A DNA stretch of 64,000 nt from a bacterium (GTDB lineage Bacteria; Zhuqueibacterota; Zhuqueibacteria; Residuimicrobiales; Krinioviventaceae), in the NCBI GenBank assembly GCA_963674595.2, contig CAXXFV010000036.1, forward strand, positions 15,496 to 79,495. The letters are read 5' to 3'. A program made the translations under genes and the position numbers. Below, in pieces: positions 13,490 through 30,387 of the stretch (position 1 is the first letter of the stretch; each line of letters begins with the position of its first letter). The notes under the pieces were generated by a model that ran no database searches, was not told where the DNA came from, and saw only the letters and a program-made list of their open reading frames with translations.

Positions 13490-14905
13490 ATGAAGTTAAA
13501 ATCGACAAAGTATTTCAGTGTTTTATTTATTGTGCTTATGCTTTTACCTGTTTCATCTTTTGCGTATAAAAAAATCAAAACTTTTGTTTTGCATCCACCC
13601 GAACAAACACTGGAAGGTGTCAAACGTATTGCCGTACTGGATTTTACTGAAACCGGCTCCAAAGAGGAAGAGGGTAACAATTTAGATCGTGAAGATTTGG
13701 CCATTAAAATTATTTCCGATGTTATTTTTGGTGATAAATCCAATCCCAGCACCGTGCAGCATGGAAAAAACTTTACAGATTATTTAATCGGCAAATTAAT
13801 TGAAAGTGATCGCGGTATCGAAAAAGTGCAAACCGGTTTTTTGGGTATGGGAAGCGGACGTGAAGGGAAAACGTTACAGGACGGTGCATTTACCAATGTT
13901 TATGAAATTGTTGAAAGAGCTCAACTTGAACGATTACTTGAAGAACAAAAACTGGGCATGTCCGGCATTGTTAATCAGGACCAGGTTGCACAACTCGGTA
14001 TTATGCTTGGGGTTCAGGCATTTGTTACCGGTAATTTGAGTATTACTCAAAAAGATACCGATTACAAAGAGACCCGCACGAAAAAGAAAGACGGTAAAGA
14101 AGTTAAAGAACAGGTAGCATGTCAAAAACGGGAAATTGTCGTCAAAGTTCGTACCCGCATTATCAGCACAGAGACCGGAAAAATTTTGGGAAGCACCGAG
14201 GCTTCTGAAAAATTGGCAAAATCATCCTGTAATGATAGCTGGGGAAACGATTCCTTCGGCAGATGAAATGATTGATGAATGTTTAAAGAAAAACAGTGAA
14301 ACTATAGCCAATTATTTTGCCCCATACTTTGAACTCGTTTCTTTTGAATTTAAAAAGATTGAAATGGACAAATTCAAAGATATTGGCGACAAAGCGGCTG
14401 AAGAGGCTGAAGATTTGCATGTGGATAAGGCCTATACAATTTATAAAGCAGTATATGATAAAATCCATACAACCCGGAAGTGACATATAATCTTGGTGTT
14501 TTACAGGAAGTTGTGGGTAACTTTACAAAAGCCCATGAACTGTACCAAATGGCCTATCAACTGAATGATGACGGCCGTTATAAAGATGCACTGAAAAGAA
14601 TGGATAAAAACGTAGAATTTGCAACGGCCCTGGCTAATATGGGAATTGAAATTAAGGAACATGACTTTAACACCAGTCAGGCGGCAGCTAAACGTGCTCT
14701 TGCTAAAAAGATCAGAACAAACGGAAACCGTAATGATATGATCAATATTCATCTGAAACCAACCGTTCAAAGTGCTGTTATACAGCGGGTTCCCGGTGGA
14801 TTGACATTTATCGTGCTGGATAGAACAGGAGACTGGTTTCTCATTGAATTGTTGGGCGGGAAACAGGGATATGTAAATCAGGATGCCTGCAAACTGCAAG
14901 ATTAA
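13490..14905 (+). CDS. exported CsgG/HfaB-like + TPR + SH3b-like protein, split into three ORFs by compensating frameshifts
   Basis: Signal peptide; RIAVLDF, VERAQLERLLEEQKLGMSG and RIISTETGKILG (CsgG-like); YNPEVTYNLGVL (TPR); GDWFLIEL..GKQGYV (SH3b). Extra base near 14241-14247 and missing base near 14460-14463; merged length 471 aa. Confidence 0.7.
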
Positions 14906-15519: not shown

Positions 15520-17565
15520 TTATTTAACCGCTCTATAAGTAATCAGCTCGGAACCGGGTTTATCGAGTATGCGTATATCAACACCGGTTTTGAGTTCCTT
15601 TCCATACCGGGTATACACTGCACCGTTGTTTTCATAACATATTTCATAAAGTGTTTCATCATCCAGCGCTTTAAAACAAATTGTCTGAGATATTTTATCA
15701 CTTTTGGGACGGCGAAAAACAAGCGCCATGCCTTCATTTAAATCGTCACGATGAAACTGGTAAGCCAGCCAATTGTCAAATCCGGTAGAATAATCCGTCA
15801 ATGGATAATAATCGCCCTGGAAAAGATGGCGGATTTTTTTGTATTCGTCATAAATATATTTGGCCTTTTCTTTGGGGAAATCATTATCATACAGGTTCCA
15901 GCCGGTCACCATTGAACCGGAGTAACTACTGCGGGCCACATAAATATCGGTTACAATACTTCCGGTGCCGTGCTGCGGAAAATAATAGGACAGACCAAAG
16001 GTGTGGTTTTGGCGGCCGTTTGGTTCGGTATAGTTATAATCGGAACGCCACAATGCCACGCTTCGTGAGATTGTTTCCAGATCCAGTCTTCTGCCGCCGC
16101 TGGCACAGTTGTCAATAATCAGTCCCGGATGGCGCTGCACTAATTCATCCCAAAAAGCATACAGTCCCTCAATGTGCCGAATTTCGGTCATTCCCTGACG
16201 GTCGGGTGTGTCCAGAGACCGCCAGTAATCAAGAGGACGAATATTAAAGTCCTGACGATATAGGTCAACACCGTTCTCCTTAATCAGGTCTGAAATAAGG
16301 TTTGTCATCCATTTTCGGGCCTCGGGTATTCCCAGGTTAAAAATACCGTTTTTATCATCCGGTTTCCTTTTAATGATCCATTCCGGGTGTTCACGATCAA
16401 CCAATGTGCCCTGGTAAACACGTTCCGGTTCAAACCAGAGCAGGAATTTCAATCCCATTTTTTTAACCGCATCGGCAACCGGTTTCAGCCCGTTTGGGAA
16501 ATGTTCTTTACGAATATACCAGTTTCCCACGTTTTGGTGCCAGGTACCGTTGTTAAAATCCATACTGCCGTACCAACCGGCATCAATCCACCAGTATTCG
16601 GCTTGTAATCCGAATTGCTGGTATCGTTCCGCCAGTGCGATCATGTTATGTTCAGTAGCCATTGTAAATTCTTCAAACATAAAGGCACCGCCGTTGCAGG
16701 CGAGTGGTCCTGTATATGGTTTTCCGTTAATTCGGGGAGTATGATGGGCCAGCACAAACCGGCGCAGTAAATTATGACCGCGCATTCTGTCATCTCCCTG
16801 CCAAAACAGCAGGAGAATACGGGGTGTGCGAATTTTTTCTCCCGGATACAATTTCAGGTGTGTTTTTTCCAGTCCGGCCTGAAAGTTAATACCGCCGCTG
16901 TCATTTCGTTTTAACAGGGCCTGCCATTGTCCGCTCCAGCCAATGGCTGCCATAGCGCCCATTTCTCCGGCCTGAATGTTGAAAAAAGGAAACGAGCTTT
17001 GATCCGAGGAACGTCCACCTTTGGGCGCAAGTGTAATTTCGGAATTCGGGCCGATTTCATTCTTTAACGGTTCAAAATCATTTATCCCGTGGTTACTGCC
17101 GCGCGTATGGTGTAAAATATATTGTCCTTTGTTTGATTCAAAAAGATGTACATCAGCAGCCTGAATGTTTTGTAAAATAGGAGTATCGTTTGCACCCGAG
17201 TTTTCAAATTCCAAAATCCATTCAACCGCTGGAAAATTGTTAAAAACCGTAGCGACACACCTAATGACAAGTTTGGTTTCCGGGTCTTTCCAGGTTAGTA
17301 CATAGTCAGTTTTATCATTGTCCGTTTTCTTTTTCTCAATACTGATATCCCAATCCTTTAAAAAAGAGGCGGATTGGTTATCGTTATAGATAAATGAAAA
17401 CAAGGGTTCCGGTTTATCGATCAAATACCTGCTGGTCCATTGTTTAACAGCCTGATTTTCCTTTTTTACCAGATAGGCATTGTTTTCTTTAGCGGTTAGT
17501 AAAGGGCCGGTTATTAAAAAAAATCCTAAAAACAGCACCCATAACCGATAAGATAATCTAGCCAT
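15520..17565 (-). CDS. alpha-galactosidase, GH36-like, exported
   Basis: WWIDAGWY, FPNGLKP, LWFEPE, RQDFN, DNCASGGRRLD and WRSD motifs; signal peptide. Confidence 0.85.
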   Translation of the reverse strand: MARLSYRLWVLFLGFFLITGPLLTAKENNAYLVKKENQAVKQWTSRYLIDKPEPLFSFIYNDNQSASFLKDWDISIEKKKTDNDKTDYVLTWKDPETKLVIRCVATVFNNFPAVEWILEFENSGANDTPILQNIQAADVHLFESNKGQYILHHTRGSNHGINDFEPLKNEIGPNSEITLAPKGGRSSDQSSFPFFNIQAGEMGAMAAIGWSGQWQALLKRNDSGGINFQAGLEKTHLKLYPGEKIRTPRILLLFWQGDDRMRGHNLLRRFVLAHHTPRINGKPYTGPLACNGGAFMFEEFTMATEHNMIALAERYQQFGLQAEYWWIDAGWYGSMDFNNGTWHQNVGNWYIRKEHFPNGLKPVADAVKKMGLKFLLWFEPERVYQGTLVDREHPEWIIKRKPDDKNGIFNLGIPEARKWMTNLISDLIKENGVDLYRQDFNIRPLDYWRSLDTPDRQGMTEIRHIEGLYAFWDELVQRHPGLIIDNCASGGRRLDLETISRSVALWRSDYNYTEPNGRQNHTFGLSYYFPQHGTGSIVTDIYVARSSYSGSMVTGWNLYDNDFPKEKAKYIYDEYKKIRHLFQGDYYPLTDYSTGFDNWLAYQFHRDDLNEGMALVFRRPKSDKISQTICFKALDDETLYEICYENNGAVYTRYGKELKTGVDIRILDKPGSELITYRAVK

Positions 17566-17738: not shown

Positions 17739-17768
17739 AAAAAAAAGCCCGTGAAAAACACGGGCTTT
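17739..17768 (-). terminator. intrinsic terminator after the YGW/CTD gene
   Basis: GCCCGTG-AAAAA-CACGGGC stem with a U8 tail on the minus strand. Confidence 0.8.
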
Positions 17769-17791: not shown

Positions 17792-18977
17792 TTATCGTAT
17801 TCGTGTGACCTTTTGTGTTGTGATATTATTTCCTGCTTTGAGTACCAGTATATATAACCCACTGGGAGTGGGTTGTCCGGCATTGTCCAGACCGTCCCAT
17901 GAAGAGGTGTAACTGCCGGCACTTTGGTTTTCGGTTACCAGGGTTTGAACAGTACGTCCTGTAATGTCGATAACGCTCAATGTTACATCAGAATCGGCCT
18001 CAAGGCGGTATTCAATAGATGTTCCCGGATTAAAGGGATTGGGGTAGGCAGACAGTAATTCTGTTTTATCCGGTAAAACAATATCTGTGGTATTTACAGT
18101 TATCACATGTCTGGATGAGACATTTCCGTTGATATCGATATCTGTAAGGCGGTATAAATAGGTGTTTCCGGATTGGACGTTTTTTATCGGCAAAGTTGTA
18201 TTTAGTTTGGGATGTTTTATTTCCCTGACCAGCCAATTGTGTATGGGTTTTATAACTGGCGATTGTGGCCCAGTTTGTTTCACCTTTTAATTGGCGTTCC
18301 AGAATAAAGCCCAGGTTATCTGTTTCGCTTTCAGTGGTCCAGGAAATATTGATGGCGCCCTTGGCTTGCGAGGCTGTAAAGGAACTCAGTTCGACAGGTA
18401 AGGATTGATCAGAACCGGCATTGATTCCCTGATCCGGGATATCATCATAGGCCCATTCGTTGATTATAAGACTTGAATAGTCGCCTGCCATGGTCAGTTT
18501 TATCCAACCGTAGTGAGTATTGGCACCCAGATTAAATTTAAAACCGGCATATTTTGTACCGGCACCCTGGAATTGGGGGGCTAGGGGACCCCAATTGTCG
18601 TTTAAACGAAAACCACCACCCGGACCGATATAAGCATTTAAATTGAGGGCATTAACCTGACTGTCTGTACCAAGCCAGCCACAGGTGGCTATGTTAGGAT
18701 TGCTAACATGAAAATAGGCCATTACGCTGGGAAAGAAATAAATTTGAAATCTTTCAGTTCCTCCTAAACTGATGGGCTCCACATTTGTTCCTGTAGATAG
18801 AACAATACTACCGCCATTATTATAAACAACGACAGCACCTAAGGCCGGTTGAATGGGTAAAAGTGCTGCACCAGCAGCCACTGGAATTAATAATCGTTTG
18901 TCGAATTTACTTATACGGGCAACTTTGGATTAAGAATCCAAACGTTGCTTTAACGTGTCTCGCGTATCAACATTCAT
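17792..18977 (-). CDS. secreted YGW-motif protein with LPVELSSF linker and FlgD-Ig/T9SS-like C-terminal domain; in-frame TAA and one frameshift
   Basis: GGAGG RBS, ATG 18977: MNVDTRDTLKQRLDS*SKVARISKFDKRLLIPVAAGAALLPIQPALGA (TAA at 18930-18932). YAGFKF..THYGWIKL..EWAYDDIPDQGINAG. An extra base in the T6 run at 18180-18185 joins it to ..YPNPFNPGTSI..WDGLDNAG..SGLY. Repaired length 394 aa. Confidence 0.75.
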
Positions 18978-19129
18978 CAGTACCCTCCATTAAATAAATT
19001 TTTTTAAAAATTAAATAGTAAAACAAGGTGGTAATGAGAATAAGCCGACAATAATGTTATTAAGAATTGGAGAATAAGCGTTTAAGAAGAAGAGTTCCAC
19101 TTGAATAAGACTTTTATTGCCTTTAGTTT

Positions 19130-19158
19130 ATTGTACAATAAATTAGTAGATATGTCAA
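19130..19158 (-). promoter_or_regulatory. near-consensus sigma70 promoter for the YGW gene
   Basis: Minus strand TTGACA-17 nt-TACAAT. Confidence 0.7.
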
Positions 19159-19175
19159 GAAGTATTTTGAAAATT

Positions 19176-19733
19176 TCACTGTTTTTGCCGCCACATCGTG
19201 GTATCAATAGCAGAAGCCATGTTTTCTATGTTTAATTTGATTTTTAGAAAATTTTCAATTTCCTGTGCTTTTTCCAGTGGCTGGCTTAGAACTTCCGGGT
19301 AAAAAAGAAATAGACACCGTACTTTATTAGCAATCAGCCAATTTTGCACCCGGTTTGTTTGAGCCGAATAGGCCTTTGCCAAATCATCTGAGGAAAGATT
19401 AGCACCTGTTTGATCCAGGTTTTTTAACATTTCTCGCTGAGAGTTGATAATTTGTTCCAGAGGACGTACCATATAAAGAACAGAATACTCTTTTTCTTTA
19501 TCGACATAAGGCAAGAGTTGAGTAATAATTTTAACAGCCTTTCCATCCGCCTCCTGCAACCATGTGTTGTCCTGACGCAGTTTTTTTACTTTTTCGTATT
19601 CGTAATAGCCTCGTGTGTTGTTTTCATCTGCCTGGCGGATATTATCTGTTAATATGGGCAAACCGCATTTTTCCAGCATCTGCATCATTAAAGAGGTCCC
19701 TGAACGCGGAAGACCGGATACAATGGTTATCAT
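19176..19733 (-). CDS. PAPS-dependent sulfotransferase family protein
   Basis: 5'-PSB loop SGLPRSGTSLMMQML, N-x-RGYYE and 3'-PB-like YMVRPLEQIINSQ; ATGA overlap with the upstream gene. Confidence 0.85.
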   Translation of the reverse strand: MITIVSGLPRSGTSLMMQMLEKCGLPILTDNIRQADENNTRGYYEYEKVKKLRQDNTWLQEADGKAVKIITQLLPYVDKEKEYSVLYMVRPLEQIINSQREMLKNLDQTGANLSSDDLAKAYSAQTNRVQNWLIANKVRCLFLFYPEVLSQPLEKAQEIENFLKIKLNIENMASAIDTTMWRQKQ

Positions 19734-21739
19734 AAAAGCCTCCCGATTTCTTTGGCGTAAATTTCTTCCAATATTATCTGATGTTTGATGGCTTCTTCAC
19801 TGTTAAATAGTTTATTCTGGTATAAATATTTCAACATGCGGTGCACCGCTTTAAATCCCGGCACAATTACAGCGCATACTTTAAAAGCTTCTGCAGCGCG
19901 TTCATACATACCCAATCGCGATAAAGCAATTCCCAGATGGTAATGAGCAATGGGATTATGATAGATTAAACCGATGGCGTTTAAGGCATAAGAAGCAGCT
20001 TCTTCGTTTTTACGTTGTCGCAGATGTACCATTGCCATGCCATCATGGGCGATATGGCTGTCCGGATCAATTTCCAATGCTTTTGTAAAGGCGCGTTCCG
20101 CATCCTTTACACGTCCCATTTTCAAATAGGTTTGTCCAATTTGCTGATGTAATACCGGTAATCGTGGATCAGCTTTTTCTGCTTTTAATAAAAAGGTTAG
20201 AGCTTTGTTATAATCTTTTTCTGCGAGCGACAGTGAACCCTGTAACAGATCAAATTGAGGATGATATTTTTCATGGGTTTCTATTACTTTTTCAACAATA
20301 TTCCGGGCTTTTTTGTGATCACCTAATGCCTGGCTGCATTTGGCTAATTGAAAAGCATAACGGGTTTGATCGGAATGTTCCGTATATAGTTTTTCAAGGA
20401 TGGGCAGGGCATTCGAGTACATATTTTTATTTATAAAAGCCCGGGCCAGGTAAAATTGAGATTCATTCAATGTCTGATCGATTGCTTTCTGATGGTCTTC
20501 ATCAGGTTTTTCGACATAACCCAGGGCTATCAATTGCTCCATAGCTTCCTGTTCGGCATAAGGGTCCTGTTGAACGTCTTGTGGAAGCAAACCGCATTCA
20601 CCTTCTACATCTTCCCAGGAAGGTATATATTCAGGTTCGATCTGTTTATCAAAGGCCTAGACCAAAGGTTTACCGTCCATATCAGCTCCAATAGGCAGAC
20701 CATAAAGTGTCAGGACTGTTGGGGCAATATCCAGCAGATTAGCGCCGTAAATACGTTCGTCCTGCAGAATATTAGGGCCTTTCATACATACAATGCCGTA
20801 AGAACGATGCTGCCATGCCGGACCGGCCGGTTCTTTGGGAATGGAGGCAGGACGGAGGTGGTCTGAATGAAAACCATGATCGGAGACGAGTATGACGGTA
20901 ACATCTTCACCTGCCAATTGCAGCAAACGACTCAACATCATATCGTGGTATAAATAACCTCCTGTTACAACTCCTTTATAGAGGTCGAACATATCTTCCG
21001 GTATATGCGGCATACGCGGCGGGTGAAAGTTCATAAAAGCATGGCAAAAATGGTCAATGGCATCGAAATAAACCGCCAGGAAATCCCATTCTTCATTTTC
21101 CAATATCCAGGTAGCTGCAGCCTGAATGCTGGAGCAATCGGCAATAATTTTTACAAGCGATTCAAGTCTTTTGTCTTTATCCTGGTCTATTTTTGCAGCA
21201 TCCGGAACGAAAGGAAGAATATGCGCCTGGGTTAGTTCCTGAGGATGCACACGCAGTCTTTGGAATATTTTTTGTTTACTTTTCGGGTGCACCGTTCCAA
21301 CTGACATGGGCCAGGGTTTATCGATTGGTGCGTTCGCACGTTGGTAAAAATTGGATATACAAATACCGTTTATAGGTTCAGCCGGATGACTGGGCCACCA
21401 TCCTATAACGTTTGTCTTGAAATTTTATTGAGTCAATATATTCCATAGAGCCTTAACTTTTCGGGAAGAGGCCATAACCGGGCGGATACCGGCAGATTGT
21501 GGAGCCGGTTCCGTAAAGTTTATGATACCGTGTTTATCGGCATGCATGCCCGTGGCAATGGATGTCCACAACATGGGGGACATGGGAGGGTCCAGCGTCG
21601 CCAGGTTTCCCATTACACCATGATTGATCAAGCTTTCCAATGCAGGCTTTTGACCGTTATCCAATAATGGGTTAATAATTTTCCAGTCAGCGGCATCCCA
21701 GCCTATAAGCAGGACTTTTTTTGCCAATCTTTTACCCAT
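19730..21739 (-). CDS. type I phosphodiesterase/alkaline phosphatase superfamily domain fused to TPR repeats; two in-frame stops
   Basis: Three track ORFs share one frame, separated only by TAA (21425-21427) and TAG (20657-20659). The spacers translate to conserved-looking [20 protein letters not shown] and [15 protein letters not shown]. Motifs [44 protein letters not shown], then TPRs. Repaired length 669 aa. Confidence 0.82.
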
Positions 21740-21944
21740 TACTGTTCTCCTCACTGTTTGCTTTTTTCTCATCTATCTCAGCGCGTTTTTTTCGCCAAGC
21801 CAGTAATCCTGCCGCACCTAATGCCAAAATCCCCAACGAACCTTCGTATGGAATACTTTTATAAAAATCTTCAAATGTATCATAGGATTGGTTTTCAACA
21901 TTAGGGATAATGGATTCGGGAGTAATCTGTTTTTCGTCACTCAT
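21732..21944 (-). CDS. 70-aa peptide with an acidic Tyr-containing N-region and a PEP-CTERM-like TM-basic segment
   Basis: [24 protein letters not shown]; no N-terminal signal peptide; its stop overlaps the next start by 8 nt. Confidence 0.75.
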
Positions 21945-22023: not shown

Positions 22024-22923
22024 CTAAAAAATAATCGTGTATTGAGTGCCTTTTTTATCAGAGACTGTTTTGATATCTGCTTCAAGTTGATTTGACAAGA
22101 TTTCAATCAACGTCAATCCGAGTGAATTTTCTTTTATTTTTTCTTTTTTTATTGAAAATCCAATTCCATCATCTCGAATTATCAGTTTGTATTTTCCTAA
22201 AGACGTTGTTTTGAAAGTTATATCTATTTTTCCGGTTTTTCCATCAGGAAAAGCATATTTTAAAGAATTTGTAATTATTTCGTTTATCATAATCCCGCAT
22301 GGGATGGCTTTGTCAATAGGTATTACAATATTTTCCAGATCAAAATTGATTTTTATTGTTTTTGCCATCTCGTGGGATGAAACCAAATGCTGCACAATGT
22401 CTTTAATATATGAGTTGAAATTCACCTCGGAAAACGATTCTGTTTTATATAGCCTTTCATGAATCAAAGCGATAGAAAATATCATATTGATTATTTCATC
22501 AAGAGCCCTCTCAAGATGTTTTTCTTTGTGATAAGTTTTTTTTAGCCTCAAAAAGCTAATCATTATCTGCAGGTTGTTTTTTACTCGATGATATATTTCT
22601 TTTATTAAGGCTTCTTTTTCTTCAAGGTTTTCCGAAATTATTTTTTTATGCTCTTTTAATAACAGAATCGATTTTTCTTTGTAATTTGAATATATTTTTA
22701 ACAGAGTATAAATAAGACCTGTTGTTATCAGTACATAAATCCATCCTTTATATGTTTGAAATTTTACATAAAAATCATGTGATTGGCTTAATCGATTTAG
22801 AATGCGGTCAGAAAAAAATATCCAACAAAATCCAAAAGTAAAATATATTGTAGAGATTACAATAGGGCCATTAAAATTCTTTTGCAGTCTTTTGTAAAAC
22901 AATTTTAATCTTGAATTTATCAT
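22024..22923 (-). CDS. membrane sensor histidine kinase, HisKA_2/HWE type, with no partner regulator nearby
   Basis: Two TM helices; EIYHRVKNNLQ, NEIITNSLKYAF, DDGIG and SLGL boxes. Confidence 0.88.
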   Translation of the reverse strand: MINSRLKLFYKRLQKNFNGPIVISTIYFTFGFCWIFFSDRILNRLSQSHDFYVKFQTYKGWIYVLITTGLIYTLLKIYSNYKEKSILLLKEHKKIISENLEEKEALIKEIYHRVKNNLQIMISFLRLKKTYHKEKHLERALDEIINMIFSIALIHERLYKTESFSEVNFNSYIKDIVQHLVSSHEMAKTIKINFDLENIVIPIDKAIPCGIMINEIITNSLKYAFPDGKTGKIDITFKTTSLGKYKLIIRDDGIGFSIKKEKIKENSLGLTLIEILSNQLEADIKTVSDKKGTQYTIIF

Positions 22924-26932: not shown

Positions 26933-29020
26933 GTGAGTCTCAACATGTTTAAAAAATGGCCCCAAACTAACAAATTCAACATATTTACTGTTCTTTGGAT
27001 TATTGTTTTTATAAGTATAATATATCTTTACCAAAACTGGCACATTGATAAAAAGTGTATCGGAATCGTTGAATCACGCTGTCATGTTATCGGCGCTCAG
27101 GAATCCGGAACAATTCAAAGCATGCTTACGGATGTGGGTGAGAGTGTTAAAAAAGGCCAGGTTTTGGCCATGCTTAATATTGCGGATTTGAGAATAAATC
27201 TCGACCGGCTTGAAAAGGAACTGTCCGATATTCAGAGCATGGAAAGTTATCAACGAATTCGATATTCACTGATTGCACAAAAAATGGTGCTACAGTTAGA
27301 AAACGAGATGTCTGCATTAATTGAACGCCTGTCACTCATTGATTCAAAAAATACAGAAATCGAAGGATTGAATAATGAAATTAGCAGGTTGGAAAATGCT
27401 GAAAAAGCAGGTCTTGGCCATAGCCGGGATTTAGCGGATTTGATAATTCAACGCGATGCTTTGGTTAGTTATTTAAAAGAGCTGAATAAAGAATTAAAGT
27501 TAAAAGACAATAGTCTGGAACAGACAAGACTATCGCAACAAATTATTAAAGATGCCAATATTGACCATTTAACAAAAACTCTATTATTGGAACATTTTAA
27601 GTATACGGAATCATTACAACGTGACATTTTCAATATTGAACAGCGGATTAACTTGAGAACGATTGTTTCTCCCTGTGACGGCTATATTACCAAAGTTTTG
27701 GCGCGGTCCGGAGATATAGTTGAAGCTTTTGCCCCTGTTTTAGCTGTTGAGGAACAAAAACCATTGTTTTTGGATGTTTATCTTCCTGAAAAATTTAATT
27801 CACAACCCGCACCGGGAATGAAGTTTGATATTTTTTCTGCTCGTGGCAAAGAGTTTAATACCACAGGTATCGTAACCTTTATTCATCCTGGTTTTTCTCA
27901 GGCATCCGAACGAGTGTCTTTCCGGCAGCAAATTTTTTGGGCACGAAAAATTAGAGTTGAATTGGCAAAGGACCATAGTTTAATTCCGGGAGAAGTTGTC
28001 ACTGTTCACCTGAAAAAGAAAAACTGGCTGAATAGTAAATCGGCGAATGTTTACGCCGGCAATTTACAAATTGAAAATGAAGATTGTTTTAACCGTAATC
28101 CGCAATTAGAGAAAATGCAGGTGCCGGCAACGCTGTTACAAGAGTCTCGTTTTGAACCGTCCGGAATTTGTTGGATTCCCGAAACGAACAGTTTTTTAAT
28201 TGTAAGTGATGATACGGGTATTAAAGATTCCGTGAACGACCATGCGGCACGTTTATTTCTCATGGATGAAAAGGGACAGGTCAATGAAGAAACTGTTTCT
28301 GTAATTGGAACCCGAACCGTAAATGACTTGGAAGCAATTGCACCTGTCGGCAATGGCGACTATTATCTTGTATCTTCTCAAAATATTAGTAAAAAGGGAA
28401 AAAGACCGGCAAACCGGGAATTTATTTTAAAATTAAAAAAACAAAACGAAAACTATATCGTTCAGGACAGGGTCCGGTTTCTATCCTTGCTTTTACGTTC
28501 CTATTCTCAGGATCAATTAAAAGCCCTGGGTCTTGATCAGCTTGAAGAGGATGGGAAACCGGTTTTAAATATTGAAGGTGCGGCTTTTTATGAGAATGCA
28601 TTATATTTTGGATTAAAAGAGCCGGTCTCTCCCCAGGGAGCCATTATCTGGAAACTGGATGATGTGGATAGTATTTTTGGAAAAGAAAAGCTGGAACCGG
28701 GACAGTTGACGGTTTTTGGCTATGTCCAATTGCAACAGTTCAATGGCAACCACGCAAGCATTTCTGATTTATTGTTCGATAATGACGGTAAATTATGGGC
28801 TTTGTCAACTATTGCAAACGTGGATAAACAAAATCAAATGGGAGCTTTATATAGAATCGATCGTTTTACAGATGGCCGGCTCGATGCCAAACTGGTTTCA
28901 AGTTTTCCATGTATGAAACCGGAAGGGATATGTCTTTATGGTTCTGACCGGTTTATCCTTGTTTTTGATAATGATGCAGAATGTCCTGAATATTGTTATA
29001 TCAACAGGGAGGAGTTATGA
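26933..29020 (+). CDS. HlyD-type periplasmic adaptor fused to a DUF3616/phytase-like beta-propeller
   Basis: N-terminal TM; lipoyl-like halves GTIQSMLTDVGESVKKGQVL and VSPCDGYITKVLARSGDIV around a long coiled coil; C-terminal FEPSGI, IVSDD, DLEAI, NIEGA, KPEGI and VFDND motifs. Confidence 0.75.
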   Translation: MSLNMFKKWPQTNKFNIFTVLWIIVFISIIYLYQNWHIDKKCIGIVESRCHVIGAQESGTIQSMLTDVGESVKKGQVLAMLNIADLRINLDRLEKELSDIQSMESYQRIRYSLIAQKMVLQLENEMSALIERLSLIDSKNTEIEGLNNEISRLENAEKAGLGHSRDLADLIIQRDALVSYLKELNKELKLKDNSLEQTRLSQQIIKDANIDHLTKTLLLEHFKYTESLQRDIFNIEQRINLRTIVSPCDGYITKVLARSGDIVEAFAPVLAVEEQKPLFLDVYLPEKFNSQPAPGMKFDIFSARGKEFNTTGIVTFIHPGFSQASERVSFRQQIFWARKIRVELAKDHSLIPGEVVTVHLKKKNWLNSKSANVYAGNLQIENEDCFNRNPQLEKMQVPATLLQESRFEPSGICWIPETNSFLIVSDDTGIKDSVNDHAARLFLMDEKGQVNEETVSVIGTRTVNDLEAIAPVGNGDYYLVSSQNISKKGKRPANREFILKLKKQNENYIVQDRVRFLSLLLRSYSQDQLKALGLDQLEEDGKPVLNIEGAAFYENALYFGLKEPVSPQGAIIWKLDDVDSIFGKEKLEPGQLTVFGYVQLQQFNGNHASISDLLFDNDGKLWALSTIANVDKQNQMGALYRIDRFTDGRLDAKLVSSFPCMKPEGICLYGSDRFILVFDNDAECPEYCYINREEL

Positions 29021-30387
29021 GCTCTGCCCCGGATCGATTAATTAGCCGTATAAGAATGCCTAACATTACACTTTTTTTATGTATGTTTTCTGTAATGGGT
29101 TTTCATACGGCGGGTTTTACAGCTCAGGATAGCACTTTGAATATAGCCCGGATTTCTGAAAAGGACTTTACTGATAATAATAACAATGGGCCGGACATTA
29201 TAACAGAAGATCAAGTCATTAAACTGGTTCAGCAAAACAGCCGCCAGTTAAAATGCCTAACAACCAGGGACCAGGTTGAAGAGTTTCGTGTCAAATCAAG
29301 CGGTTGGTTCCAAAATCCTGAGTTGAGATTGAGTGAAGAATCTGATCGTTATATGTCAAATGATTATAAAGAATTGGAACTTGGTTTACGCTGGCGGCTG
29401 CCCAGACCCGGAGAATTGGGTAAAGAAAAACAAAATGCACGGGTACGTTTATGGGAACAAAAAGTTGAAACGATCCGGCATCAGCAGCGAATCATTTTTA
29501 AGATTAGAAAAGAGTATGCAAATGTTTTGATGTATGACGCGATTGCCCAACTTGAAAAACAAAGATTGGACAAAGAAAAAGAAAGACTGGATATTATAGA
29601 TAGTCTGGTAAAATTAGGACAGCGTACCATTGTCTATTCTATCAAGGCAAAAATTTGGGAAGCAGAATCAGAAAATGATTTTGTGTGTGTTAAAAATAAC
29701 CAGGGACTGGCCCGGAGAAAATTAGCCAATCAAACAGGTATTCCGGAAAACGCAATGCTTGCTCCTCAAAATATTCCGGAATACACGCCTGATGTTAACC
29801 AATTAATCGAAATAGCATTTAATTATCGGCCGGAGATGGAACTTGTTGAACAGCGGATTGAACTGGCTAAACGGCAGAACAAATTTGAAAAGTTTAAATT
29901 AATTCCCTGGCCAACATTTATTGAATCATCCTATCACATTGAAGATAAACATGATAAAAACTGGAATGAATTCAGGATTGGTCTGAGTTTGCCGCTTTTT
30001 AACTGGAACCGTGGAAATATTAAGGCAACTAATTTATCTGTACAAAATAAAGAGTGTGAATATGAATCAATTCGTGAAACCATAAAAGATGATGTGCATT
30101 CCGCTTTTATTATTTACCAGGAACTGTTATCCGATTGGCAAAATTTCAAAAAAAGTTCTGATGAATTAATATCAAATGTTGAAAAGTTACTTGAACAAAC
30201 TGAAAATCATGAAACAATTATGCCTGATGAAATTTTGGAAATGGAATTGGCTGTAATCAAAACAAAAAAGTTGTTATGTGAAAAAAAATGCAATCTTTGT
30301 CACGCATTATATGATTTGTATTATGCAATTGGGATTGGAAATGACGGCAATGTAAATAATGAATGGACACGTATAAATGCTCAATGA
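29017..30387 (+). CDS. TolC family outer membrane channel
   Basis: ATGA overlap and GGAGGAG RBS; two helical repeats with NPELRL, RPEM and GLSLPLFNWNRG. Confidence 0.82.
   Translation: MSSAPDRLISRIRMPNITLFLCMFSVMGFHTAGFTAQDSTLNIARISEKDFTDNNNNGPDIITEDQVIKLVQQNSRQLKCLTTRDQVEEFRVKSSGWFQNPELRLSEESDRYMSNDYKELELGLRWRLPRPGELGKEKQNARVRLWEQKVETIRHQQRIIFKIRKEYANVLMYDAIAQLEKQRLDKEKERLDIIDSLVKLGQRTIVYSIKAKIWEAESENDFVCVKNNQGLARRKLANQTGIPENAMLAPQNIPEYTPDVNQLIEIAFNYRPEMELVEQRIELAKRQNKFEKFKLIPWPTFIESSYHIEDKHDKNWNEFRIGLSLPLFNWNRGNIKATNLSVQNKECEYESIRETIKDDVHSAFIIYQELLSDWQNFKKSSDELISNVEKLLEQTENHETIMPDEILEMELAVIKTKKLLCEKKCNLCHALYDLYYAIGIGNDGNVNNEWTRINAQ

Follow-up and report, generated by a model that had tools for sequence, protein, structure and literature searches.

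To our knowledge, very few systems that sulfate proteins have been described in bacteria. In the biosynthesis of peptides made by the ribosome and modified after translation (RiPPs), leader and follower peptides activate the modifying enzymes, including in trans and in enzyme-fused forms. The described systems closest to the locus presented here are as follows. In Xanthomonas, RaxST, RaxX and RaxB belong to a system with a tyrosine-sulfated RiPP (10.1101/442517). The PEP-CTERM/exosortase (EpsH) sorting system is represented by the families PF07589, TIGR02595 and PF09721 (PMC1569441). In Halobacterium salinarum, Agl30 and Agl31, proteins of the alkaline phosphatase (AlkP) superfamily, are implicated in N-glycan sulfation (PMC11980604), and the lanthipeptide sulfotransferase SslST is leader-independent (PMC11143521). 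The locus itself is a four-gene cassette at positions 17,792 to 21,944 of a 64,000-nucleotide stretch of DNA from a bacterium of the Krinioviventaceae (contig CAXXFV010000036.1), and this whole stretch is hereafter called the window. An earlier note had proposed a sulfation cassette acting on a micropeptide, on a secreted protein with a YGW domain, or on both. We consider it likely, with good confidence, that the cassette serves leader-bearing cargo as a dedicated system. With a probability of roughly 0.5, the intact system would be a cytoplasmic cargo-docking platform that relays sulfate from 3'-phosphoadenosine-5'-phosphosulfate (PAPS) to this cargo.

All four genes lie on the minus strand and run in one direction, as the earlier note had them. 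The first (21732..21944) encodes an intact micropeptide of 70 amino acids with a free-standing tail motif, GSLGxLAxGxxGxxxWR, which is related to PEP-CTERM and predicted to be a docking subunit of the AlkP domain. The second (19730..21739, 669 codons, with two in-frame stops) joins an AlkP-superfamily PF01663 domain to an array of tetratricopeptide repeats (TPR), and the third (19176..19733) encodes an intact, short sulfotransferase-fold protein of 185 amino acids (PF13469/PF00685) of the PAPS-dependent type. The translational coupling of these three holds to the letter, since both the 8-nucleotide overlap and the ATGA overlap are exact. The fourth, the YGW gene (17792..18977), encodes an atypical signal peptide or leader (18852..18977), a passenger domain (18390..18851), and an Ig-like linker followed by a C-terminal sorting domain of the FlgD_ig/Por_Secre_tail kind, typical of the type IX secretion system, T9SS (17792..18389).

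Like RaxST/RaxX, the cassette places a cytoplasmic PAPS sulfotransferase beside a small peptide gene and is tied to export, and the top fold match of its sulfotransferase is the tyrosylprotein sulfotransferase TPST1. Unlike RaxX, however, its micropeptide has no conserved tyrosine acceptor, its cargo is a full-size protein of the Sec/T9SS or PEP-CTERM type, an AlkP-TPR platform is added, and no peptidase-containing type I secretion system (T1SS) transporter is conserved among the neighbours at the 82 loci described below (6-kb flanks). With PEP-CTERM proteins the tail shares a basic cluster after a Gly/Leu stretch. It differs in being free-standing, without the Pro-Glu-Pro, a passenger or a signal peptide, in mostly not forming a membrane helix, in having no exosortase, and in its predicted binding to a cytoplasmic enzyme. 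The micropeptide is unmatched by PF07589 and TIGR02595, its consensus being IPxEG rather than Pro-Glu-Pro. Agl30 and Agl31 likewise tie an alkaline-phosphatase-like core to the addition of sulfate, but theirs is a glycosylation cluster with an N-glycan as substrate, and neither TPR nor tail peptide nor leader is described for them. RiPP systems resemble it in their short recognition peptide, which can act in cis or in trans or be joined to the enzyme, in their swappable tailoring enzymes and in their variable core. Here, by contrast, the core is a folded surface domain of 150 residues, the leader is a secretion signal as well, and the binding module would be an AlkP groove. The cassette lacks defining features of both PEP-CTERM/exosortase and RaxST/RaxX, shares a part with the first and may work like the second. 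No published description of it was found in the open literature, subscription literature lying outside the search. No NCBIfam model scores above its cut-off for the micropeptide, the AlkP-TPR enzyme or the YGW domain, and the lone signal is a marginal GlyGly-CTERM score for one homologous micropeptide.

A scan of species-representative genomes gave 522 relatives of the AlkP-TPR gene, of which the best 80 were retained. Together with the cassettes of two genomes of the same family, G008 (the source of the pair folded below) and G015, they make up 82 loci, a set weighted toward close relatives and scored with profiles built from those same loci. The relatives occur in Bacteroidota, Acidobacteriota, Planctomycetota, Verrucomicrobiota, Nitrospirota, Proteobacteria and others, and the carriers include culturable marine flavobacteria. 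At the 82 loci, YGW is present in 64, the sulfotransferase in 60 (in 46 fused to the TPR), a free micropeptide in 30, and a tail on the YGW protein in 30. A free micropeptide and a YGW-borne tail occur together at none of the 82, with a 49-codon tail fragment on the opposite strand of locus L037 left out of the count. Where the YGW protein is truncated or has a beta-type sorting domain at its end (27 loci), a free micropeptide is present in 23; the remaining four are one fusion, two short contigs and one fragment. When neighbours within the 6-kb flanks were clustered by BLAST, YGW was the sole neighbour family kept across phyla.

A less biased test was provided by 201 Flavobacteriaceae genomes, the centre genome included. 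The sulfotransferase, micropeptide and leader profiles match the identical 24 genomes (12% of the sample) and none of the other 177, and YGW matches 23 of those 24 plus seven enzyme-less genomes. Samples of 151 genomes each were taken for Acidobacteriota and Planctomycetota, with 8 candidates scored per genome. Among the Planctomycetota, the enzyme turned up in 4 genomes and YGW in 5; in one carrier, G446, the enzyme lies on a 4-kb contig and YGW was not found. The expectation that the families co-occur across genomes is borne out far beyond chance. One locus labelled Algicola (Pseudomonadota), L085, is nested with its cassette and flanks among Flavobacteriaceae, which reflects a mislabelled bin or a transfer.

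The leader is the feature that ties cargo to enzyme. By a permissive pattern, 80 of the 85 YGW genes at the 82 loci show a Tyr and, after it, a stretch that is rich in Ala/Gly and only weakly hydrophobic. In the enzyme-less Flavobacteriaceae with YGW, N-termini could be read in six of the seven genomes, and all eight proteins carry ordinary Leu-rich signal peptides, with a maximum KD9 of 2.3-3.6 against a mean of 1.99 for the 80 linked leaders. An enzyme-less planctomycete, G547, has a YGW protein without the Tyr leader. The apparent exception, G530, has divergent AlkP-TPR genes that adjoin its leader-bearing cargo. The leader is also found on non-YGW neighbours in Bryobacteraceae, and on unlinked genes within enzyme-bearing genomes. 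The Tyr-bearing leader is inherited together with the enzyme, and the data indicate the YGW proteins as its cargo. In the leader alignments (A5 and A6) rows were chosen by their Tyr, so its invariance there is by construction; profile A6 is insensitive across phyla, having missed one Bryobacteraceae genome, and its Acidobacteriota count of 1 in 151 is a lower bound. At the Bryobacteraceae loci L071, L076, L080, L095 and L104, YGW and the tail were not found; the gene two places upstream encodes a Soli_cterm protein (TIGR03437) whose Tyr leader is extended, and it is followed by one for a conserved, uncharacterised protein of about 367 amino acids.

The micropeptide family comprises 970 clusters at 50% identity. 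The best 150 homologues all measure 45-100 amino acids and have polar N-termini, with neither a signal peptide nor a passenger domain, and the peptide occurs once per genome. The motif is nearly invariant among homologues, and its codons differ from those of G008 at 10 synonymous and 3 non-synonymous positions, a pattern which indicates that it is under purifying selection. The role of membrane anchor, which the earlier note had given to the peptide, does not fit: a KD19 hydrophobicity of 1.6, taken as the membrane-helix criterion, is reached by 8 of the 150, and 116 of 146 have a charged residue inside the motif. The suggestion that the peptide is itself sulfated fares no better, as no Tyr column is conserved and 41 of the 150 have no Tyr at all (109 have any). 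In Acidobacteria, Planctomycetes and Verrucomicrobia the cargo itself ends in this tail, the Planctomycete and Solibacter cargo tails pass the PEP-CTERM cut-off, and in 9 protein clusters the motif is fused to the N-terminus of the enzyme. PF09721 exosortase was not found in the present genome (G000, 97.6% complete), in G008 or in G045; it is present in G042 and G401, where the cargo bears the tail. The micropeptide is thus probably a detached PEP-CTERM-like tail rather than an anchor or a substrate, as judged from these comparisons.

When the G008 pair of micropeptide and AlkP-TPR was folded together, the score was 0.85 in three runs, and the best of 3 controls reached 0.01. In a benchmark, which is rough with our own alignments, 116 of 157 solved pairs and 2 of 215 mismatched pairs attained this mark. 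The runs share at least 75% of contacts, with a partner pLDDT of at least 69. The micropeptide is accordingly predicted to dock on the AlkP domain, through residues 160-175, 198-213 and 263-270, with no contact listed on the TPR or the metal ligands; the binding of the peptide by the TPR, as previously proposed, is not what the model returns. The contact residue M266 is Glu or Gln in five tail-less Bryobacteraceae enzymes, which form a single clade. Mean conservation of the predicted interface is 0.62, not above the AlkP-domain mean of 0.67.

Both enzymes retain their catalytic machinery among relatives. In the AlkP domain, D14, S53, D228, H232, D286, H287 and H310 are invariant in 68 of 68 active members, and the ligand roles among them are assigned from the layout of nucleotide pyrophosphatases/phosphodiesterases (NPP). 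With PF01663 above cut-off, a Ser nucleophile and a two-metal ligand set, it classes as an NPP-like bimetal enzyme. A weak alignment places S53 opposite the nucleophile of sulfatases, PDB sequence searches with the domain gave weak sulfatase and mutase matches only, and the profile search was dominated by TPRs. No signal peptide was seen on the AlkP-TPR protein. The sulfotransferase scores above the PF13469 cut-off, its GLPRxGTS, R90 and S98 are invariant in 56 of 56, and Foldseek matches it to sulfotransferases with probability 1.0, giving it a PAPS-binding fold. For the modification cassette first proposed, the YGW protein as candidate cargo and the two invariant catalytic sites lend support, and the micropeptide as substrate finds none. 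The same proposal had placed no exosortase or PAPS-synthesis gene in the window, and this is correct: exosortase is unfound genome-wide, and APS (adenylyl sulfate) kinase is encoded twice on other contigs, one copy directly behind ATP sulfurylase.

In the mechanism we favour, the cargo, mostly YGW proteins, would present a signal peptide of weak hydrophobicity whose conserved Tyr lies at the boundary of its n and h regions, and the platform would probably read this leader, most likely via its TPR. The short tail motif is predicted to bind the AlkP groove, and it would be supplied as the cargo's C-terminus, as a free micropeptide when the cargo ends in a T9SS-type or other tail, or as an N-terminal fusion to the enzyme. 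Because the tail is found in cis, free or enzyme-fused, it would be a subunit that is required, for docking or for activation, much as a follower peptide supplied in trans is in RiPP systems. The sulfotransferase would bind PAPS, and together with it the two-metal AlkP site, with Ser as its nucleophile, would relay the sulfate to the cargo before or during export, the leader Tyr being the prime candidate site. AP-superfamily proteins are able to act as sulfotransferases (PMC11980604). In its fullest form, the proposal would carry RiPP logic over to full-size surface proteins and make the Sec signal peptide a recognition leader that is Tyr-sulfated through a relay from the sulfotransferase to the AlkP serine, with the tail as an allosteric follower in trans and other, GNAT-like writers elsewhere. 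We hold this form tentatively and regard it as doubtful. A system of the favoured kind would show that a signal peptide can be a leader for modification, that a sorting tail can be turned into a subunit of an enzyme, and that the AlkP fold can be a peptide-docking scaffold with exchangeable chemistry.

The exchange is suggested by a sister clade. In a comparison of sites across a set of 82 homologues, the AlkP site is kept in 30 of 30 sulfotransferase fusions, and a sulfotransferase is present in none of the 42 dead-site proteins. The latter keep the TPR and the groove residues H205 (40 of 42) and T209 (39 of 42), every catalytic position is scrambled, and most end in a C-terminal domain of about 350 residues, whose GNAT label rests on sub-threshold matches in 3 of 8 proteins (E 0.003-0.27). 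Tyr-leader, tail-bearing YGW genes adjoin the dead AlkP-TPR in G530 and L241, and a cut YGW end does so in L244. The writer thus appears swappable, with a dead AlkP plus a GNAT-like domain arranged beside the same cargo type. That the site is kept in the fusions and the groove in the dead clade suggests that AlkP catalysis serves the sulfotransferase and that docking has a separate, lasting role. The dead-site rows form one side of a branch in a quick AlkP tree and represent few events. At the sister loci (L237 in G530:C60, L238, L241, L242 and L244; P0160-P0194), the dead AlkP-TPR is often present in two copies, along with one to three copies of a protein of about 670 residues without a credible Pfam match, and in G530 an N-acetyl sugar amidotransferase-like gene lies nearby.

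The same clade lends itself to another explanation, namely an export chaperone or checkpoint. The AlkP-TPR protein would mainly hold weak-signal cargo for the translocon, and sulfation, or acylation in the sister clade, would be a transient regulatory mark, or AlkP would erase such a mark or clear the spent 3'-phosphoadenosine 5'-phosphate (PAP). The weakly hydrophobic leaders occur where the platform does, the loss of all catalytic residues leaves scaffold, groove and cargo link in place, and a Tyr within the signal peptide would be cleaved off at export. However, a pure chaperone would need neither enzyme, and the seven catalytic residues are invariant in 68 of 68 members and strictly kept where a sulfotransferase is fused. 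We consider this explanation unlikely, and prefer sulfate relay to the cargo.

Several observations weigh against sulfate relay to a dedicated cargo. In the fold search, TPST1 ranks first (E 3.6e-5) with CurM and cytosolic SULTs nearly tied, so no substrate class is selected. The short sulfotransferase is found in 40 of 151 Acidobacteriota and a true AlkP-TPR orthologue in 1 of 151, and at 6 of 16 loci it stands beside other AlkP proteins without cargo or tail; because of these counts, the sulfotransferase is best read as a generic partner. It also occurs elsewhere in the genome in 9 of 9 cases, a weak result against a 26% background. No tail form is found at the cut-off in 21 of the 82 loci, including five Bryobacteraceae loci and four Terriglobia-type loci without linked cargo. 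The co-occurrence is inflated by physical linkage and kinship. The AlkP tree puts free and fused micropeptide forms together in a single clade (support 89); the split therefore probably happened once, so that the mutual exclusion of free and YGW-borne tails may be a single event. Finally, the content of Tyr, Ser or Thr is no higher in linked passengers than in unlinked ones, a weak comparison of 9 with 3 sequences, with three further unlinked sequences left out.

In six loci (L173, L177 and L185-L188), the short sulfotransferase accompanies other AlkP genes, mostly a pair of 650-720 amino acids, and YGW and the tail were not found; five of them also encode a membrane protein of about 276 amino acids with no Pfam family. 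By their gene content these loci form a separate, uncharacterised sulfotransferase-AlkP module. Elsewhere in the present genome, L113:4801-7745 (G000:C16) combines a membrane AlkP/sulfatase-like gene, a gene whose PRSG motif is sulfotransferase-like (no Pfam match at 1e-5) and a carbamoyltransferase in a polysaccharide cluster that resembles the Agl30-type arrangement. An AlkP paralogue at L114:4877-6874 (G000:C27) has a twin-arginine-like N-terminus by eye, and paralogues of 660-710 amino acids occur in many relatives.

Such arrangements would fit a sulfated glycan or lipid as the product, for example a lipid-linked glycan later placed on YGW, or an anchor, with the protein chain itself unsulfated. 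Agl30/Agl31 set the precedent (PMC11980604), the short sulfotransferase pairs with other AlkP and membrane proteins away from the cargo, and this genome has its separate AlkP membrane protein among polysaccharide genes. Against this, no glycosylation gene, be it a glycosyltransferase or a flippase, is conserved around the 82 loci, and the tie to a specific signal peptide and tail, together with the GNAT-like swap, argues for a peptide target. Glycan or lipid sulfation is distinctly unlikely in our judgement. The earlier idea of the micropeptide as a TPR-bound membrane anchor or RaxX-like sulfated product is highly improbable: the peptide is translationally coupled to the enzyme and in the window has four Tyr (three in an acidic stretch), an uncharged core and weak CTERM-type profile matches, but Tyr is unconserved, the majority of homologues do not form membrane helices, the model places the peptide in the AlkP groove and lists no contact to the TPR or the metal ligands, the conserved neighbours include no peptidase/T1SS exporter, and the peptide is enzyme-fused in 9 clusters.

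The passenger, which is all-beta (model pLDDT 82) and highly variable, matches no known family. Foldseek gave no match at E 0.001, and an Atlas search returned only unnamed clusters under 0.9. A DUF4466/HmuY-like fold was rejected, as the best VIA Z of 6.0-6.1 (root-mean-square deviation 3.5-3.7, 110-117 residues aligned) is below the trusted level, and no function is inferred from it. In six YGW copies from three related genomes, the passengers are 27-63% identical and the sorting domains 58-87%. The C-terminus scores above cut-off for TIGR04183 and PF18962, and PorV (PF19572) does so in 8 places of the genome. With its sorting domain and with PorV, the sole T9SS component searched for, the YGW protein classes as T9SS type A cargo. 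Contigs of four public runs (X1, X2, X4 and X5) were aligned to the window, of which X4 covers nearly nothing. In X5, a close strain, positions 18412-18978 (leader plus passenger) are swapped for 585 other bases and the flanks are kept, which is allele exchange of a variable domain.

The copy in the window is itself broken. The repair of the reading frames that the earlier note called for locates four breaks, two each in the AlkP-TPR and YGW genes. The AlkP-TPR gene keeps a single frame throughout and is interrupted by a TAA (21427-21425) and a TAG (20659-20657), and the YGW gene has a TAA (18932-18930), at the position of the homologues' conserved Tyr, and a +1 frameshift in an A-run near 18180, in the segment that holds the Ig-like linker and the sorting domain. 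One contig of run X1, probably the source, carries all three stops with zero differences. In X2 (14 differences from the window) and in X5, both stops of the AlkP-TPR gene are replaced by another base and the extra base is absent, which leaves these sister strains with one break at most. For the background rate, 276 queries from 400 kb were compared with G008 proteins; the 55 matches obtained, with 21,125 aligned residues, held one frameshifted gene and one shadow open reading frame (ORF). At the upper rate, four breaks in about 1,300 residues have a Poisson P of 0.0002, and three of 0.003. Because the breaks exceed this background and X2 and X5 lack at least three of them, we read them as a recent, single-lineage loss, and it is highly probable that the operon was inactivated in this way. 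The alternative, that they arose in sequencing or assembly and that this organism has an active operon, would fit the depth of only about 5.5 of the X1 contig, the absence of any X1 contig spanning the frameshift site, and the nearness of X2, which is merely 14 differences off; the three stops in a single X1 contig at zero differences and the rate above background make it quite improbable. General assembly noise is disfavoured on the same two grounds. An alternative genetic code was rejected, TAA and TAG being the main stops genome-wide and no suppressor tRNA having been found. Because the passenger is variable and swapped between near-identical strains, and the operon is lost here, the data suggest a surface trait that would be under phage, predator or kin selection.

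Intact cassettes occur in 2 of 40 relatives, G008 and G015, with AlkP-TPR 82% identical and two YGW genes each. The present genome also has a second, intact and unlinked YGW gene (L112:6520-7656, G000:C14) with the Tyr leader and the same C-terminal domain, which is now without a working enzyme. Near position 97846 of G000:C1, a match to a G008 housekeeping protein, which we take from its N-terminus to be phosphoglycerate kinase, is split across three frames.

As for signals, the earlier note had given the fourth gene its own promoter and terminator. The region's best promoter-like site, a sigma-70-like consensus with an 11/12 match (19130..19158, minus strand, consensus only), does precede the YGW gene, and a terminator-like hairpin of 10 pairs follows it (17744..17768, minus strand), but the 14 promoter-like sites of the region are not above the 13.4 expected from shuffles. 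The flanking genes, a HisKA_2 kinase (22024-22923) and a GH36-like glycosidase (15520-17565), both on the minus strand, differ from the flanks in G008 and G015, and therefore the cassette sits at a different site. On the plus strand, 5 kb upstream, an HlyD-family/DUF6929 fusion and outer-membrane efflux genes (26933-30387) are not kept around related cassettes. At 13490-14905, also on the plus strand, the overlapping CsgG-like, middle and TPR/SH3 ORFs use different frames, and a further frameshifted gene may lie here.

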